NCBI GenBank assembly: GCA_963803805.1
Contig: CAWDOD010000004.1
Location: forward strand, 464,839 to 528,838
Source of the DNA: an uncultured cyanobacterium
GTDB taxonomy: Bacteria > Cyanobacteriota > Cyanobacteriia > Cyanobacteriales > CAWCAG01
Length of the DNA: 64,000 nt
Direction of reading: 5' to 3'
Below, piece after piece: positions 3,896 to 25,123 of this stretch (positions are counted from its first letter, which is position 1; every line of letters begins with the position of its first letter). Made by a program: the position numbers and the translations under genes. Below the pieces are notes generated by a model that saw only the letters and a program-made list of their open reading frames with translations, ran no database searches and was not told where the DNA came from.

Positions 3896-5908
3896 CTACA
3901 AATCGCACCAATTCACTTCTTGCCCATTTTCAGTAATGCAGCCATCCTTAATCTTTAACTCCCTACCTAAAAATGTCGTTAAGCTGAAGCTAGGACGAAC
4001 ATTTACTGGATAAATTTCGTAGGCTAAAGATTGTTCTAGCAAAATGCCAATAGCTACTTTTTCCCCCATCACCAGGCTGTCGATATAGTCGGTGTAGTAA
4101 TGTACCCCAGCCATATTTCGCCCCATGGAGATGTTGGCAGCAAGCTTGTTTAACTCATTCCCTACTGTTAAGGGTGTTTGTCCTAAATTCGTCGCTTCTC
4201 CCAGTTGCTTTCCCTCAGATACATAGGCAAGGGGTAGATCACTATCCTTCTGATACTTATCACGAGGAATAATTGCTAAATTTCCCTCACGCTTCACCAA
4301 CAAAGCATCAGTATCAAAAAAGGCTTTAAGCATAGTCACACAAGCCCCTGCAACGGTAGCGTGTCCTGCACCATAGGATGGGTGCATTGGTGAACCTTCC
4401 GGGAAAGCCATGGGTAGTAAGGCGGTTTTATCTCCTATATTCTCATTAGGATGCTTGAGATATTTTCGCAGGTCATTCTTTTTCTCACTATTCTGCTCAC
4501 CATTGTGTTCTTTGATAAGTTCGAGAAGGTTAATGCCTCCTTGGAGGGTATTGAGAACATCATATGTCTGCTGTAATTCCTCAATCCCTGTAATTTTGTT
4601 CAAGTTAATTGCTTCCATCCAACCCCCAAGGGCCTCTGGACGCTGGCGACAGTGGACGTTAAACTTTTGATACCGTACTGCTTTCAGGGCGCGAGTTGCT
4701 ACTTCTGTAACTAAGTTAAGAATGTGGGGACCACCAAACAAAGCGAAGCCATCAACTCTACCCAAACCACTAGCACTCTTTTGTTTAGCTTGGTCTGAGA
4801 AAATATTACTAAGCTGTAAAATGCCTGGCTCGAAGGGTGCTTTGTGGCCTAGAAGAATTAAACAAGCATTGAGATAAGCTTCGTAGAGAGCATCAAAGTG
4901 AACGTAGGTTGCGAGATCCCGCAGGGTAGTTATAAAGCGTTTATCCTGCTCAAATTTATCAAACCCCTTCAAATTGGCCCCATCTTGAACATCAAGAAAA
5001 ACATCCCAGGTAGTCAGGTGATCCAGCCCTGAAAAGGCGAGAATGACCTTTTGCTCAACTTTTACTGCACCATAGTCAATTAATCCCTTTGTAATATTTT
5101 CCTGGCTATTTTCAGGCCCAGGAGTACCAATAAGAAGAAACTGGGATAAATAAGGGCCAATTAAATCCCCTGATGTAGCACCTCGGAAAATAGTTTGCTC
5201 ATCTAAGTACTTCTGAGAATTCAATTGGCGTTTACGTCGTTTTAAGCCCGGTGCAGTGGGCATCTCGTTTTGCATCCAGGGTAAGGAATTGAGGTGTTGG
5301 ATCGCCTTTTGAACCTTGTCGTTACCAGTTCCTTTTTGCAACTCACTAAAATAAACATCCCGTAAAAGAGCTAGCCAGTAAACCTCTGCCATTTCAAAAG
5401 TGAGTTGCTCTGAACCCAATTTTGGGGCTGGGGGCATGGTGACGCTGTGGCTGTCGGGGCCGTGCATTTCAAAGGTTAAGCCTGCTGAGGAAGTTTCCCA
5501 ACCTCGTTTTTTGACACGATCCTCAACACTTCGCCAACTAATTTCACCATTGGCTTCTGGGGTTTTACCAAGTTGTAATTGAGGATCATTAAAGAAATCA
5601 CCTTTGTGGGTTGCTACGCGGAAACGTTTAAATTGTTCGGGTTCGACTAAACCGTTTTCCTTATGGGGTAGCCCTTTGGTAAAAGAAGCTACAAACGATT
5701 GGTTTTGGAATTTTGCTTCATCACCGTTGGCTTGGTGTTTAGCCCCACAGTTGGTTAGCCTTATTGCTTGCCACCGTAGCATTTTAACCCTGAGTTCCCG
5801 TAAATGCCTTAGCCCAAAGAAACCACCCAGAAAAAATTTGCGTACTAGGTTTTCTTTTTCTAGCTTCTCTCTGTCCAGGAAATCACTTAACTGATTGCTA
5901 TTATTCAT
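3896..5908 (-). CDS. Vanadium-dependent haloperoxidase (bromoperoxidase type)
   Basis: Vanadate-binding motifs KFNVHCRQRPE, PMHPSYGAGHATVAGA and GRNMAGVHYYTD; FTKGLPH and LRDLATYVHFDALYEAYLNACLIL match the red-algal/cyanobacterial VBPO type. Confidence 0.92.
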   Translation of the reverse strand: MNNSNQLSDFLDREKLEKENLVRKFFLGGFFGLRHLRELRVKMLRWQAIRLTNCGAKHQANGDEAKFQNQSFVASFTKGLPHKENGLVEPEQFKRFRVATHKGDFFNDPQLQLGKTPEANGEISWRSVEDRVKKRGWETSSAGLTFEMHGPDSHSVTMPPAPKLGSEQLTFEMAEVYWLALLRDVYFSELQKGTGNDKVQKAIQHLNSLPWMQNEMPTAPGLKRRKRQLNSQKYLDEQTIFRGATSGDLIGPYLSQFLLIGTPGPENSQENITKGLIDYGAVKVEQKVILAFSGLDHLTTWDVFLDVQDGANLKGFDKFEQDKRFITTLRDLATYVHFDALYEAYLNACLILLGHKAPFEPGILQLSNIFSDQAKQKSASGLGRVDGFALFGGPHILNLVTEVATRALKAVRYQKFNVHCRQRPEALGGWMEAINLNKITGIEELQQTYDVLNTLQGGINLLELIKEHNGEQNSEKKNDLRKYLKHPNENIGDKTALLPMAFPEGSPMHPSYGAGHATVAGACVTMLKAFFDTDALLVKREGNLAIIPRDKYQKDSDLPLAYVSEGKQLGEATNLGQTPLTVGNELNKLAANISMGRNMAGVHYYTDYIDSLVMGEKVAIGILLEQSLAYEIYPVNVRPSFSLTTFLGRELKIKDGCITENGQEVNWCDL

Positions 5909-8955: not shown

Positions 8956-9054
8956 AGTTAATTTTAGTGATCCTCAAGGTTAAGCCATTATAAAAGAAAA
9001 TTCCCGAATCTTCCTAGTGAAAAGCAAATTATTTAGAAATGTATCAATGGCTTA

Positions 9055-9109
9055 TTGCTATTAAATATCAATATGCTATCCTAAGCTTATTGTGAATAAT
9101 TACTATCAA
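9055..9109 (+). promoter_or_regulatory. Two Fur-box-like 7-1-7 sites upstream of the small peptide gene
   Basis: TGCTATT-A-AATATCA (9056-9070) and GAATAAT-T-ACTATCA (9094-9108) each match 11/14 positions of TGATAAT-N-ATTATCA. The AT-rich background weakens significance. Confidence 0.45.
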
Positions 9110-9119
9110 GAGGTGCATC

Positions 9120-9257
9120 ATGACAGTCAAATCCCAGCCAGTAAAACAGAGTAAGATTGAGATTGAAGTCAAAAATCTTGCCCCGGAAACTAATACAGAT
9201 ACCACCGTTAAAGGTTATCAAAGTGGAGCCTTTGATGGGGATGATGGCTCTGATTAG
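9120..9257 (+). CDS. 45-aa small peptide, candidate RiPP precursor: MTVKSQPVKQSKIEIEVKNLAPETNTDTTVKGYQSGAFDGDDGSD
   Basis: Below the ORF-track length cutoff; AAGAGGTG RBS just before the ATG; leader-like KIEIEVKNL and an Asp/Gly-rich C-terminus; directly upstream of the JmjC oxygenase. Confidence 0.75.
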   Translation: MTVKSQPVKQSKIEIEVKNLAPETNTDTTVKGYQSGAFDGDDGSD

Positions 9258-9287
9258 TTAAGATACTTTTTAAAATTGGTTTAGATT

Positions 9288-9398
9288 CATATAGCAATTA
9301 TTAGTACCATGAGGTAAGCCTTAGACTCTATTTTTGCTAATAGCTAGTGGCGAATGGCTAATAGAAATGTACCTCCGCAGCTTGGGAATTGCTATATG
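9288..9398. repeat. MITE-like element, family A, copy 1
   Basis: 12-bp terminal IR CATATAGCAATT/AATTGCTATATG, internal ATGAGGTA...TACCTC and GCTA(A/G)TG heptamers; related copies at 24356 and 46427. Confidence 0.7.
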
Positions 9399-9512
9399 TC
9401 TTTTTTGGGGAAGTAAAATTGTTACAATTTTGCTTCCTTCCTTAGTTTAAGTAAAAGAGATAACTTAATCTATTGCTGAAAAAGTATTTATAGCAATCAT
9501 CCAAGAAATAAC

Positions 9513-10693
9513 ATGGAAAATCTCTCTATTAACTCTGTGATCGCAGAAATTTTATCTCCCTACGAATTAGTCGAATTTTTTGAGAAGTATTGGACGCAAA
9601 AGAGCATTTTTATTCCTAATAATGGTCGTCGCTTCAACCAGATTTTCTCCTGGCAAAAACTCAACCATTTACTTAACTTTCATGAGTTCGATTACCCCTC
9701 TCTACGTTTAGCTAAAAATGGAGAAGTTTTACCTCCGAAAGAAAACGCTCATTTCCTGAAACATTGTCAAGAGGGAGCAACTTTAATCATTGATCGTTTA
9801 CACAAACTGGTTCCTGAAGTAGGGCGTTTTGCCGCAGCAATCAAAGATGATTTAGGTCATCCTTTACAAGTAAATATGTATTGTTCTTGCCCCAAGTACA
9901 GGGATTCAAGTGTCATTATGATACCCACGAAGTATTTATTTTACAAGTAGATGGCTGTAAACAATGGCATATTTTTGCTGATACAGTTAAGTACCCTTTA
10001 AAAGAAGAGAAATCATCTGCTCATTGCCCCCCCGAAAGTGAACCTTATTTAAGCTGTATCCTCGAACCTGGGGATGTTCTCTATATTCCGAGAGGACATT
10101 GGCATTATGCTAAGACAGTAGATCAACCATCTTTACACCTTACTTTAGGGGTACATTGTTTAACGGGAATAGACTTTTTGCAGTGGTTAACAAAACAGCT
10201 AAAGGAAGAACAAGAATGGCGAACTAATTTACCGGTGATTAATAATAACTGTTCTGTTTCTCTCAACAAATACTTAGATAGTTTAACAGGGAGTTTAGCT
10301 AATTATTTACACACTAACAACTCTAGTGCTGAATATGCACAATATATAGCCAATTCAGAAAATCTCATTCCTAAGTATGCCTTTCCCTATCAAGCGGGCT
10401 ACCAAATTTTTGCCCAAGGTATCAACACAAAGTTTATGCGTCCAAAGTACCAGCGATCGCAGATTATAGAATTACCAGGACAGCAAGGTTATAAAATTAT
10501 AGTTTGGCACAAAGAAATCATCTTAAAAGGTGTCCCCAAATCTTTTGTTAATAAGTTATTTCATCAAGAAACTTTTACTGGTATAGATGTAGCCAGTTGG
10601 TTGTCAGAGGATTTTGATTGGGAAGTAGATATTGCCCCGACTCTACGGCGTTTAGTTACAGAAGGAATTATTTTTGTTGTCAATGATGCCTAG
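9513..10693 (+). CDS. JmjC/Cupin_4 (YcfD/ROX-like) Fe(II)/2-oxoglutarate oxygenase, split by a one-base frameshift near 9890
   Basis: N-terminal half FFEKYWTQK..GATLII..QVNMY; C-terminal half GFKCHYDTHEVFILQVDGCKQW (HxD plus K), LEPGDVLYIPRGHWHYA, SLHLTLG and a winged-helix-like C-terminus LRRLVTEGII. One extra base in TGCCCCAAG fuses the two ORFs. Confidence 0.88.
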
Positions 10694-10830
10694 TAAGCTG
10701 GCAGGTATTTATATTGTCGATGGGGGGAGGTAATGGGTAATAGGTAATGGGTAAGAATTACAGCTTATCATCTTAGTTAATTCAACAATATAAGGCTTTG
10801 TGATCGCACAATTTTTTTGCCTACAAGTAA
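10694..10830. repeat. MITE-like element, family B (degenerate copy)
   Basis: Starts TAAGCTG; contains GGTAATG/GGTAATA heptamers and TTAGTTAATTCAACAATAT, shared with 37772-37884. Confidence 0.5.
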
Positions 10831-11025
10831 CATAAAATACGGCAAGCCGAACATTGCTCAGTTATCAATAAATATACTTAAAAAATAAAATCCATAATCT
10901 CTCTGAAGTTAATTGCTAAATTCTTGCATTAAGATGAAAGTCAAGATTTACTCAAATTCCTTATTAAACCTAGGAGGAGTGAGAAATCATCTTTTAGTAA
11001 CAAAAAATTAAATCCCATCTAATTT

Positions 11026-12033
11026 ATGACTCCTTTCTTCTGTGCCAACCTGTCTCGTCAGCTAGGGGAAGACATCATTGGTAGCGCTCCCTCTTACCAA
11101 ACCTACATCATGGTAGAATGCCCTTATCCTTGGGCAGAAAATGCCTTTAAATCTCAAGGCGTTCCCCAAAACTTAAGGGAGTTGGTAGCAGAAGTTAAGG
11201 AAGCCAACTTATCTATTCGCTTTCTTTTAACCTTACCCCCGCAACCAGATCCAGAAAATCAGACGCGGGTATTAATTTTCCAGAAACAGTCAGGGCTAGC
11301 TGTCGGTTATAAGAAACAAGCAATTAAGGTAAGCAATATCACAGATGTTGCACCACTATTAAATAAATACTTAACATCAGAAGGTTTGCAAATTGAAGGT
11401 AAAGCCAGTAGAATCAGAGATTTCTTTGTTTGCACCCATGGAAGCCATGATAAATGTTGTTCTCGCTACGGTTATCCCTTCTTTCGCCAAGGTGTAGCTA
11501 TGGTTGAGAAGCTAGGTTTAGAGGATGTAGGTTTTTGGCAAGTAAGTCATATTGGGGGACATAGGTTTGCCCCAACCTTAATTAGCCTACCTGATGGCAG
11601 GTATTATGGGGCTTTAGACCAGGAATCTTTACAAGCAATCCTCTTACATCAAGGGGATATCACTTGCTTAAACAGAGTTTATCGCGGTTGGGGGCTTTTA
11701 CCCAGAAAAGTCCAAGTTTTAGAAAGAGAATTAATCTTACGCCACGGTTGGGAATGGTTATCTAATTCTGTTAGTTGTCGTATTCTTCAAGATTTTCCTG
11801 AAAAGAATTTAACCCAAGTAGAGTTATTTTGCCAAACCAGCAACGGAGAGACTTGTGCTTACCAAGGAGATATTATCATAGATGAAAGTAAAACTCTGAC
11901 TATGCCAGGTTCTTGTCATGCAGACAAGGCATCAACCTTTGTTAAGTATACTGCTACAAATATTCGTCAAGTAACTAAAGTACAATCTCTAGATCATAAG
12001 CGTTCTGTATCTAGAGTCGAAAAATCAGCTTAG
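11026..12033 (+). CDS. Sucrase/ferredoxin-like (thioredoxin-like 2Fe-2S) protein
   Basis: VECPYPW, FVCTHGSHDKCCSRYG, WQVSHIGGHRFAPT, PDGRYYG, YRGWG. Confidence 0.9.
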   Translation: MTPFFCANLSRQLGEDIIGSAPSYQTYIMVECPYPWAENAFKSQGVPQNLRELVAEVKEANLSIRFLLTLPPQPDPENQTRVLIFQKQSGLAVGYKKQAIKVSNITDVAPLLNKYLTSEGLQIEGKASRIRDFFVCTHGSHDKCCSRYGYPFFRQGVAMVEKLGLEDVGFWQVSHIGGHRFAPTLISLPDGRYYGALDQESLQAILLHQGDITCLNRVYRGWGLLPRKVQVLERELILRHGWEWLSNSVSCRILQDFPEKNLTQVELFCQTSNGETCAYQGDIIIDESKTLTMPGSCHADKASTFVKYTATNIRQVTKVQSLDHKRSVSRVEKSA

Positions 12034-20437: not shown

Positions 20438-21064
20438 CTAGGGAGAAGATTTTTCGATTTCTCCCTCTATATTTTTCCTTGCCTGAGTTTCAAATTTATG
20501 ATAGCAATACTCAGTAAAATAGATTCTTTCTCTATCTAAGAAAACTTGTAAGATTTCCTGTCTCTTTTGCTTATATTCTTCTTGGGGAACCCAAGCATAT
20601 TCTTGGCGTATTTTGTGAGCATAACTTTGATAAATACTTGATGTTGCTCCCAAAATAGCTAAATCAGCATCGAGAAAAATATATTGATCTATATTGCCTA
20701 TTTGAGGTAAATGTTTTTTAGTAATTAATATTAGTTCAGTGACTGCTTTTATCAAAGATATTGGCAGGTTCAATTTTCTTAAATAAATTTCTGTTTCAAT
20801 AGCACTTTTTTCTTCATTATCTTGGGCTTTAGAGTCATAAACAAAATCATGAAACCAAGCTGCTAAAAGCAATGCTGTTGTATTTGAACTCAAAAAACTC
20901 ATCTGGTCTATGATTATCAAAACCTGCTCAATATGCTCTAAATTGTGGTAAAAACGACCAGGGGCAGAATAGGCCCTGGTCAAATCAAGAAAAACTTGGT
21001 TAGTAACTTCAGATTTCCTTGCTAATAGTGCTAGAGTCTTTTCCCAATAATATTTAAGATTCAT
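20438..21064 (-). CDS. Predicted metal-dependent HD-superfamily phosphohydrolase
   Basis: RFYHNLEHI, AAWFHDFVYD, DNEEKSA, FLDADLAILG, IRQEY. Confidence 0.85.
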   Translation of the reverse strand: MNLKYYWEKTLALLARKSEVTNQVFLDLTRAYSAPGRFYHNLEHIEQVLIIIDQMSFLSSNTTALLLAAWFHDFVYDSKAQDNEEKSAIETEIYLRKLNLPISLIKAVTELILITKKHLPQIGNIDQYIFLDADLAILGATSSIYQSYAHKIRQEYAWVPQEEYKQKRQEILQVFLDRERIYFTEYCYHKFETQARKNIEGEIEKSSP

Positions 21065-24712: not shown

Positions 24713-25123
24713 ATGCAACTACCAGAAGAACCAGAGCAACCTTTCTCTATTAACATCTTGCCTGCTATTGATGTTATTTTTGTGATTCTTACTTTTGTGA
24801 TTCTTTCTACTCTTTATTTAACTCGTTCCCAGGTACTACCAGTTAATTTACCAGAAGCGGGAACTGCTCAAACTCAGCAGACTAAAACGATTAATGTTAC
24901 TGTCACCAAAGAAAGAACTATCGCTATTAATCGTCAGCCAGTTAACCTAGAACAAGTTCAGACACAATTAAGTAAATTGGTGCAGCCAGGAGTTGAATCT
25001 TTGGTGTTAGTTAATGCTGATGAGAAAGCTTATCATGGTGATGTTGTAGCAGTGATGGATCGCATTAGTCAAGTTGAAGGGGTTAAGTTAGCGATCGCAG
25101 TGAATAAAGTTGATAGAAATTAA
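24713..25123 (+). CDS. exbD: Biopolymer transport protein ExbD/TolR
   Basis: INILPAIDVIFVIL TM with the conserved Asp; VNLP; NADEKAYHGDVVAVMD. Confidence 0.9.
   Translation: MQLPEEPEQPFSINILPAIDVIFVILTFVILSTLYLTRSQVLPVNLPEAGTAQTQQTKTINVTVTKERTIAINRQPVNLEQVQTQLSKLVQPGVESLVLVNADEKAYHGDVVAVMDRISQVEGVKLAIAVNKVDRN

Follow-up and report, generated by a model that had tools for sequence, protein, structure and literature searches.

A stretch of 64,000 nucleotides (nt) from an uncultured cyanobacterium (contig CAWDOD010000004.1, positions 464,839 to 528,838; hereafter the window) carries on one strand a 45-residue open reading frame (ORF) with an Asp-rich end, a gene for a JmjC oxygenase and a gene for a sucrase-ferredoxin-like (Suc_Fer-like) protein. 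The question raised by this locus is whether the three genes work together and, if so, what the oxygenase does to the small peptide; an earlier note on this DNA had proposed that the peptide is hydroxylated to yield an iron-regulated, ribosomally made chelator. The small ORF is a real coding gene, and it accompanies the JmjC gene in most of the cyanobacterial loci compared. From the genomic arrangement we infer a precursor-like peptide with a dedicated JmjC enzyme and a ferredoxin-like partner. That this cassette is a three-gene unit resembling those for ribosomally made, post-translationally modified peptides (RiPPs), and having an acidic, metal-binding product, has in our judgement about an even chance.

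The peptide gene and its conservation

The peptide gene lies at 9120–9257 (+ strand, stop codon at 9255–9257) and is preceded by a ribosome-binding sequence, AAGAGG, at 9108–9113 (+), 6 nt 5' of the ATG. Its assignment draws on the open frame, its homologues, a hidden Markov model (HMM) and codon statistics. As described earlier from the letters alone, the encoded peptide contains KIEIEVKNL and ends in GYQSGAFDGDDGSD, with Asp at 4 of the last 7 residues; among the 444 six-frame ORFs of at least 30 amino acids (aa) in the window, it is the only one with at least four Asp within its last seven positions.

A protein search with the distal JmjC ORF returned 475 relatives at E ≤0.001. The 120 listed were nearly all intact and 380–421 aa long, carried cyanobacterial organism names where a name was given, and included P0002, the nearest homologue among the matches listed (82% identity). 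A scan of one genome per species (GTDB) with an alignment of 15 relatives retrieved 252 stretches, 247 of them encoding a relative, so that a JmjC relative is encoded in at least 247 bacterial or archaeal species genomes. The locus counts given here rest on the best 80 of these 247 stretches, each taken with 5 kb per side. All of the 80 loci with a named taxon were cyanobacterial, and the carriers include ecologically important cyanobacteria, filamentous ones among them: Trichodesmium, Microcoleus, Moorena, Microcystis and Nostocales.

A homologous ORF of about 50 aa, always on the JmjC strand, was detected upstream of the JmjC gene in 74 of the 80 loci with an HMM and in 72 by a search for the leader-motif pattern, while tblastn with the window peptide alone reached 6 of the 80 only (E <1e-3). 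The existence of a single small-ORF family was evident from listing the ORFs 5' of each JmjC gene, and the family was resolved only through the motif and HMM searches. With the window and its five nearest relatives left out, an HMM of larger-subfamily sequences still recovered the window ORF (E 3.1e-8) as its sole six-frame match in the window. Conservation of a short ORF with a DGDDG-like end upstream of JmjC orthologues was the test defined beforehand by the earlier note, and these 74 loci give it a positive answer. Of the 6 loci in which no peptide gene was detected, three offer little upstream DNA (138, 539 and 775 bp). The genes flanking the cassette in the window (HPF, CAP, GTPase) do not occur at any of the 80 loci. 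Peptide and JmjC genes are separated by a median of 155 nt (range 29–1516 nt). Gaps of 0.7–1.5 kb occur in L064, L068, L073, L075 and L078, all from the Trichodesmium/Okeania/Dapis group, and in L068, L073, L075, L078 and L080 the DNA covered by the JmjC match is longer than such a gene needs; an insertion may be present at such loci of this group.

In the protein database, 162 relatives of the peptide were found at E ≤0.01, and among the 120 listed those that carry a name were all called 'hypothetical protein' and those with a named organism were all cyanobacterial, the window peptide itself not being among these 120. Peptides of the same family from Rhizonema are present there on small contigs other than those of our loci (P0220, P0226). 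Searched against 1.84 billion representatives, the peptide profile gave 47 matches at E ≤0.001, of which 46 were 41–75 aa long; a 1570-aa match was set aside as a chance repeat, as only profile positions 5–24 were covered. Pfam and NCBIfam assigned no family to the window peptide or to four relatives, and the ESM Atlas gave no usable match for a stored relative (P0148). The family thus illustrates an annotation gap in which genes of 45–65 aa are still overlooked.

The peptides have a two-part design. In 33 aligned sequences M1, I13 and D39 are invariant and S11, E16, D42, G43 and D45 nearly so (window numbering). The consensus reads MS....KQ.R.SKIQIEVKEI, followed by about 11 variable residues and LN.DADG.D, from which we define a leader motif, S-K-I-x-[IV]-E-[IV]-K-x-[IL], and a core, D-x-D-G-x-D. 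In the window these correspond to SKIEIEVKNL (residues 11–20; 9150–9179, +) and FDGDDGSD (residues 38–45; 9231–9254, +). Mean net charge is +2.7 in the N-terminal part and -4.5 in the C-terminal part, Cys makes up 0.2% of the residues, and no signal-like hydrophobic stretch was seen in the aligned peptides. Of 73 peptides, 51 have a single core module, 14 have two and 7 have three; in the remaining one no module could be made out. The leader-like half and acidic core first read from a single peptide therefore hold for the family, with a conserved N-terminal motif and a core repeated in 21 of the 73 peptides.

Two subtypes can be told apart by their ends. Peptides of the larger terminate in ...DADG[SG]D..NE or in several copies of the module; the smaller has 7 members, including that of the window, and stops straight after G[SG]D. 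In a maximum-likelihood tree of the enzymes, a branch supported at 93/73 has the smaller-subtype loci on one side (100/99 with L018 included). This co-divergence of peptide and enzyme could be explained by shared ancestry alone.

The codon statistics are those of a translated gene. Mean entropy at codon positions 1, 2 and 3 was 0.48, 0.20 and 1.11 over the ten leader codons and 0.32, 0.20 and 1.18 over the six core codons. For 28 genes of exactly 50 codons, compared without gaps, which can only raise dN, the ratio of nonsynonymous to synonymous substitution rates (dN/dS) had a median of 0.29 and was below 0.5 in 228 of 243 pairs with dS of 0.1–2. In 57 of 74 family genes, one of GGAG, GAGG or AGGA precedes the chosen start by 4–16 nt.

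Past the peptide stop codon, a strong hairpin is present in 33 of 35 dereplicated loci, the best minimum free energy (MFE) of a 44-nt segment in this region averaging -16.1 kcal/mol versus -9.4 kcal/mol in shuffled sequences. In the window it is a terminator-like structure of 15 pairs with a weak T tail, located between the peptide and JmjC genes (9407–9439, +) and present in both the MFE and the centroid folds; the whole window had no match in Rfam at gathering thresholds. In most loci the hairpin lies 20–90 nt after the stop, and it is often similar from one locus to another, of the ATCAGGAGTAAAGGGTA...TACCCTTTACTCCTGAT type. It may act as an attenuator or as an mRNA stabiliser. A same-strand ORF placed upstream of an enzyme gene and followed by such a hairpin could also be a cis-acting upstream ORF or attenuator of the JmjC gene, whose peptide is itself functionless. 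We consider this extremely improbable, given that the amino acid sequence is kept at both ends under purifying selection, that the distance to the JmjC gene varies between 29 and 1516 nt, and that the core module has been duplicated in 21 of 73 peptides.

The JmjC oxygenase and its contact with the peptide

The JmjC_2/ROX-type Fe(II)/2-oxoglutarate (2OG) oxygenase gene occupies 9513–10693 (+) in two frames, 9513–9889 and then 9890–10693. The ORF covering its distal part (9881–10693) matches PF08007 (JmjC_2) with 88.3 bits against a cut-off of 22, and also Cupin_8; P0002 scores 96.5 bits. The iron triad H135, D137 and H198, together with K150 (P0002 numbering), is invariant in 77 homologues and present in the window ORF, in agreement with the JmjC/Cupin oxygenase with an HYD...H triad reported before for this strand. 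In the alignment with NO66 these residues fall on its HYD, its GRK and its last His, and the Lys is the residue that binds 2OG.

A profile of the 77 homologues matched, among structures in the PDB, NO66 (3.1e-30), MINA53 (2.8e-27) and Bacillus YxbC (1.2e-20), and more weakly the YcfD-like protein of Rhodothermus (5.8e-11) and E. coli YcfD (1.5e-7). The AlphaFold model of P0002 (392 residues; predicted local distance difference test, pLDDT, 90.5; predicted template modelling score, pTM, 0.81) was aligned by Foldseek with NO66, MINA53 and YcfD over 396–453 columns, through the helical and C-terminal domains, at 16–22% identity, the NO66 match reaching 9.8e-23 over 446 columns. Residues 307–383 of the model run E-E-E-E-H-E-H-H, that is, strands and then helices, with an extra strand between helices; in ROX structures this C-terminal domain is termed a winged helix. 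As judged from the model, the window oxygenase group has the whole three-domain build of NO66, MINA53 and YcfD, and the winged-helix-like C-terminus suspected earlier takes part in the full-length alignment.

Co-folding of the peptide with the enzyme, a check suggested by the earlier note, gave for the L016 enzyme and its own peptide a score of 0.58, versus 0.02 for the best of three controls. The runs share at least 54% of their contacts, and the pLDDT of the partner was at least 54. Of 157 solved complexes, 116 attain the mark applied, as do 2 of 215 mismatched pairs; as a calibration these counts are only approximate, because the supplied alignments were custom-made. The prediction thus weakly suggests a contact between peptide and enzyme in this one pair.

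The same structural relatives raise the alternative that the JmjC protein is an oxygenase of ribosomal or other proteins, like YcfD, NO66 and MINA53, and that the peptide is independent of it, for instance a Ca2+-binding or regulatory micro-protein that shares its operon. The nearest solved structures are indeed ribosomal-protein hydroxylases, one source automatically names a relative 'ribosomal protein L16 Arg81 hydroxylase', and a GNAT acetyltransferase encoded nearby in other loci is weakly RimI-like. YcfD itself is a distant match, at 1.5e-7 versus 3.1e-30 for NO66. Moreover, the adjacency in 74 of 80 loci extends over several cyanobacterial families with differing outer flanks, which is hard to account for without a functional tie; the peptide is built in two parts with repeated cores; and the co-fold beat its controls, if weakly. 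As to a Ca2+-binding peptide, the tails of the larger subfamily (N-x-D-x-D-G-x-D-x-x-x-E) have a spacing like that of an EF-hand loop, and we take them to match the canonical pattern at positions 1, 3, 5, 6 and 12 only. The window core, D-G-D-D-G-S-D, is without EF-hand spacing, and Pfam gave no EF-hand or DxDxDG match for the window peptide or for those of L011, L020, L063 and L016 (these four at E up to 1). An oxygenase acting on ribosomal or other proteins beside an unrelated peptide is, in our view, decidedly unlikely, and that the peptide is the substrate of the JmjC enzyme appears on balance probable.

The Suc_Fer-like protein, the neighbourhood and the upstream elements

The third gene, at 11026–12033 (+), encodes a Suc_Fer-like protein of 335 aa that matches PF06999 with 97.5 bits against a cut-off of 34.9 (E 1.4e-27), so that the 2Fe-2S sucrase-ferredoxin-type gene expected on this strand is indeed there. 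It is also part of the unit: by tblastn, 69 of the 80 loci have a Suc_Fer gene 3' of the JmjC gene, and it is directly downstream in 61 of the 66 loci having at least 2.5 kb of downstream DNA. Every one of the 69 aligned sequences has C136, H138, C144, C145, H175 and H179; C6 is kept in 67 and C297 in 68 of them. The cluster ligands are presumably two Cys and two His. The core of the predicted structure (pLDDT 84.2) matches the thioredoxin-like [2Fe-2S] ferredoxin of Aquifex, 1f37 (E 4e-3, TMt 0.59, 85 columns); by sequence, nothing in the PDB was found below E 0.1. The protein continues in a β-rich C-terminal part of about 110 aa (residues ~225–335; window 11700–12033) with near-invariant W242, W244, G295-S-C297, F305 and K307. 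A structure search of the PDB returned no match for this extension, which could be a peptide- or partner-binding domain.

A convergent gene for a GNAT acetyltransferase (PF00583), which the earlier note did not mention and which is absent from the window, was found at 61 of the 80 loci; of the 66 with enough downstream DNA, 56 have it. It stands tail-to-tail with the Suc_Fer gene, for example at L042:2653-3108 (-), and it still adjoins the JmjC gene in L018, L065 and L070, where the Suc_Fer gene is missing. Its product is weakly RimI-like (TIGR01575, 43.1 bits versus a cut-off of 86.4). Only 1 of 6 loci in the smaller-subtype clade has this neighbour. Read from the leader-proximal Met, 57 of 67 larger-subtype peptides start with MS, versus 1 of 7 of the smaller subtype; such a start would fit N-terminal acetylation by the GNAT enzyme, which is speculation. 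Beyond the GNAT gene, a pair of TldD/PmbA-family metallopeptidase genes can be found, for example at L049:8009-11069 (-), the inspected loci being Microcoleus-type. Enzymes of this family elsewhere take off RiPP leaders, and their pairing with the cassette may be plain synteny.

Window proteins were scanned against Pfam as 28 ORFs spanning 1837–36847. The cassette is preceded by ordinary housekeeping genes for a lipoyl transferase, a hibernation factor and a secreted CAP/PPC protein, and followed by genes for a dynamin-like GTPase, a solute-binding protein and acetate kinase. Two ORFs of the window, at 3896–5908 (-; 670 aa) and 20438–21064 (-; 208 aa), belong to no Pfam family at E ≤1e-5.

The earlier note had also read two Fur-box-like sites ahead of the peptide gene and, from them, regulation by iron, and neither claim gained support. 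Against the classical Fur 19-mer, the best positions were 9057–9075 (13 of 19) and 9095 (12 of 19), and a score of at least 13 is reached at 31 positions in the 64-kb window, so that these matches are at chance level. The site at 9057–9075 is moreover the spacer of a promoter-like element, TTGCTA-16 nt-(TGc)TATCCT, with putative function at 9055–9082 (+): a -35-like TTGCTA at 9055–9060, a 16-nt spacer and an extended -10, TGCTATCCT, at 9074–9082. When the window was aligned with its five nearest loci (L001, L003, L016, L007 and L002), TTATTGC...TGCTA..T was kept; a simple sigma-70 scan did not list the element. The Anabaena FurA consensus (PMC4005646) gave a best match of 13 of 19, at 9022, in the upstream region of the window. 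Over 53 dereplicated upstream regions its best match averaged 12.5 versus 11.8 in shuffles, with a score of at least 14 in 9 of 53 regions versus 58 of 1060 shuffles and a score of at least 15 in none of the 53.

Other elements recur in these 53 regions. The sequence TTATTGAC, counted as its reverse complement GTCAATAA, lies upstream of larger-subfamily peptide genes in 20 of them, and the 8-mer TTCTCAAC is present in 12, where shuffles gave at most 10 of 53 for any 8-mer. The heptamer TTCTCAA of TTCTCAAC is also contained in the FurA consensus of PMC4005646; TTCTCAAC itself was not found in the upstream region of the window as printed. A subset of loci carries an inverted repeat, TTGACT-N8/9-AGTCAA, which in L010, L035, L043, L051, L054 and others lies about 100 nt 5' of the ATG, and in which an upstream TTCTCAACTAnTTGCA-like element can be read as well. 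We rate a link to Fur as unproven, because the regulator behind these elements cannot be named. A gene for ExbD is located 12 kb from the cassette, at 24713–25123.

A proposed pathway and its relation to known systems

Five features, namely the leader motif, the repeatable acidic core, the hairpin, the dedicated oxygenase with its strand-helix domain, and the linkage of the genes, together suggest the design of a RiPP precursor and its tailoring enzyme. In the pathway that we propose, the small gene would encode a precursor-like peptide whose N-terminus is basic and which carries a strand-like motif for recognition and an acidic D-x-D-G-x-D core. The ROX-type JmjC oxygenase would hold the leader, probably through its C-terminal winged-helix domain, and would oxidise side chains of the core, most likely by β-hydroxylation of Asp; a further hydroxylation target might be the Asn that precedes the core in the larger subfamily. 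Known targets of JmjC hydroxylation are the side chains of Asn, Asp, His, Arg and Lys, and β-hydroxylation of Asp or Asn is the most economical guess because the core keeps only Asp, Gly and, in the larger subfamily, Asn, which fits this range. The same set of target residues is stated in PMC11575548. Hydroxylation of Asp in the core is nevertheless a tentative assignment, which we place a little short of even.

The Suc_Fer-like protein, a predicted [2Fe-2S] protein of the Cys2His2 type, would be the redox partner, either keeping the oxygenase iron ferrous or acting on the metal-loaded product. That product would most likely be an acidic peptide binding Fe(III) or Ca2+. Three β-hydroxy-Asp residues per module could offer three bidentate α-hydroxy-carboxylates, and with them a hexadentate Fe(III) site; the D-x-D-G-x-D loop, modified or not, could equally bind Ca2+. 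Taken by itself, binding of a metal by the product is rather doubtful, and the full proposal, a widespread cyanobacterial class of ribosomal β-hydroxyaspartate chelators in which all three Asp of every module are hydroxylated, each peptide offers one to three hexadentate Fe(III) sites, and a dedicated Suc_Fer-type protein reduces and releases the metal, appears quite improbable.

Several points weigh against the proposed pathway. The chemistry of the cassette is deduced from sequence and predicted models. The solved relatives of the oxygenase are named in the PDB as His or Arg hydroxylases of ribosomal proteins, not as Asp hydroxylases, and the co-fold passed in a weak band, since scores of 0.60 or less held, in the same approximate calibration, 18 of the 157 solved complexes and both of the mismatched pairs that passed. 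Three of the loci without a peptide, from Rhizonema (L062, L066 and L079), have at least 3.4 kb of upstream DNA, and the Suc_Fer gene is missing from 5 of the 66 loci with enough DNA. No fused JmjC-Suc_Fer protein was found among the longer Suc_Fer relatives, which is weak evidence. There is no convincing Fur box near the window peptide gene, where matches are at chance level only, and no gene for a TonB-dependent receptor among the 28 window ORFs scanned against Pfam. The same scan found no protease or exporter gene adjoining the cassette in the window, as had already been noticed, and over the 80 loci such genes lie outside the conserved unit, the two members of the TldD/PmbA-family pair being present in only 14 and 11 of them. 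A leader protease or exporter within the cluster is not obligatory for RiPPs; as the conserved unit is without either, the product would be used in the cell or released by unlinked functions. Finally, the JmjC frame of the window is broken at 9889/9890, where one base is missing at a conserved Trp codon: the window reads TCTTGCCCC at 9885–9893 and the homologues read S-W-P.

This last point could mean that the cassette is decaying in the window genome, the frameshift being real and the peptide and Suc_Fer genes leftovers. Frame 0 (9513–9950) follows the homologues to ...QVNMYCS and frame 2 (9881–10693) resumes at PQVQGFKCHYD; one source predicted the distal 268-aa ORF alone, 100% identical to the window ORF (P0001). 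Both JmjC halves are, however, otherwise open and 78–81% identical to the nearest homologue, and the peptide and Suc_Fer ORFs are intact. The essential gene obg (GTP1_OBG + MMR_HSR1) is likewise split in the window, into ORFs 1837–2427 and 2363–2842, by an extra T in a T-run at ~2355–2358, and the assembly seems to carry homopolymer indel errors. Because obg is frameshifted in the same window, the break in the JmjC gene is possibly an assembly artefact. We judge a real frameshift fairly unlikely, and a decaying cassette equally so; the window cassette would be functional only if the frameshift is an assembly error.

The enzyme might also modify the peptide to a different end, the product being an intracellular signal or regulator whose hydroxylation state reports O2, 2OG (the cyanobacterial carbon/nitrogen signal) or Fe(II) supply, with the [2Fe-2S] protein adding a redox input. 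These three are precisely what Fe(II)/2OG oxygenases require, and such a role would suit both a peptide without a signal-like hydrophobic stretch and a conserved unit that leaves exporter, protease and receptor genes outside. The locus encodes no partner able to read the signal, however, and repeated identical cores suit a stoichiometric binder better than a switch. As the idea is also purely one of deduction, we give it a low probability, and return to the pathway to a metal-binding peptide for comparison with what is known.

The literature search found no description of the peptide family or of the JmjC and Suc_Fer pairing, and no papers on ribosomal oxygenases in cyanobacteria. The accessible text of Iyer et al. 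describes JmjC neighbourhoods with ATP-grasp ligases and phage dioxygenase arrays, and the peptide-JmjC-Suc_Fer cassette is unmentioned in it. Fusions of PF08007 JmjC with domains like the RiPP recognition element (RRE), which have bacterial homologues in settings resembling RiPP clusters, are described in PMC12710340. Set against the RRE as defined there, the C-terminal domain of the JmjC model has strands and then helices, with one strand too many between the helices. JmjC hydroxylases that act on RiPP precursors exist already: BipG, of the biphenomycin pathway, targets Orn (PMC12707348), and CzlI, of the curacozole pathway, targets Phe and needs core-flanking sequences for its activity (PMC11575548). 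The cassette would accordingly be a RiPP-like pathway with a JmjC tailoring enzyme, with a peptide family for which Pfam, NCBIfam and the literature search gave no name, and we do not regard it as categorically new; a new RiPP class is no more than a possibility, JmjC action on RiPP precursors being known from BipG and CzlI.

Like CzlI and BipG, the enzyme of the cassette is an Fe(II)/2OG JmjC protein encoded beside a ribosomal precursor, on which CzlI and BipG act, and Bacillus YxbC, the nearest structure of CzlI, also matches the JmjC profile here (1.2e-20). Unlike the minimal peptide-JmjC-Suc_Fer cassette, those two systems are large multi-enzyme clusters with proteases and transporters; the core here consists of Asp, Gly and Ser, with no conserved Phe, Arg or Orn, CzlI and BipG being compared by description only. 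The best sequence and fold matches remain NO66, MINA53 and YcfD, which align over the full length and share the HxD...H triad and the Lys; by their PDB names, these hydroxylate His or Arg of ribosomal proteins, and they lack a dedicated gene for a small substrate. The peptide would thus provide a testable substrate for a JmjC/ROX clade that one source automatically names 'L16 Arg81 hydroxylase'.

The chemistry proposed here, formation of β-hydroxy-Asp in a ribosomal peptide by an Fe(II)/2OG enzyme, is that of CinX of the cinnamycin pathway (PMC11575548) and of SmaO of an aminomalonate pathway, which acts with the HD-domain enzyme SmaX (PMC12186529). In the accessible parts of these sources neither CinX nor SmaO is called a JmjC enzyme. 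Unlike the SmaO/SmaX system, no HD-domain gene was found in domain scans of the window proteins and of the relatives' loci.

The Suc_Fer-like protein shares PF06999, a thioredoxin-like ferredoxin core and the invariant C...CC...HxGGH with the Apd1/Aim32 ferredoxins and with CctD, the family member linked to cyanochelin uptake. CctD recurs in cyanobacterial siderophore transport cassettes; the role of CctD and of Apd1-Aim32, also in yeast, is described as open and evidence for iron reduction as lacking (bioRxiv 10.64898/2026.07.30.741596). Unlike these proteins, the one encoded here continues C-terminally in an additional domain of about 110 aa. The cassette offers a first functional partner for the orphan Suc_Fer-like/Apd1-Aim32 family, and a ribosomal chelator, if that reading is true, would be the first assigned job for a bacterial Suc_Fer-like protein.

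As a chelating residue, β-hydroxy-Asp comes so far mainly from siderophores made by nonribosomal peptide synthetases (NRPSs), such as the cyanochelins. Unlike the loci for these, the window has no NRPS and no TonB-dependent receptor among its 28 scanned ORFs, and no convincing Fur box. The product proposed here would nevertheless share their Fe(III) ligand: if the Asp-rich core is hydroxylated, the same chelating residue would be made on the ribosome too, and a ribosomal chelator would be a genetically encoded counterpart of the NRPS β-hydroxy-Asp siderophores.

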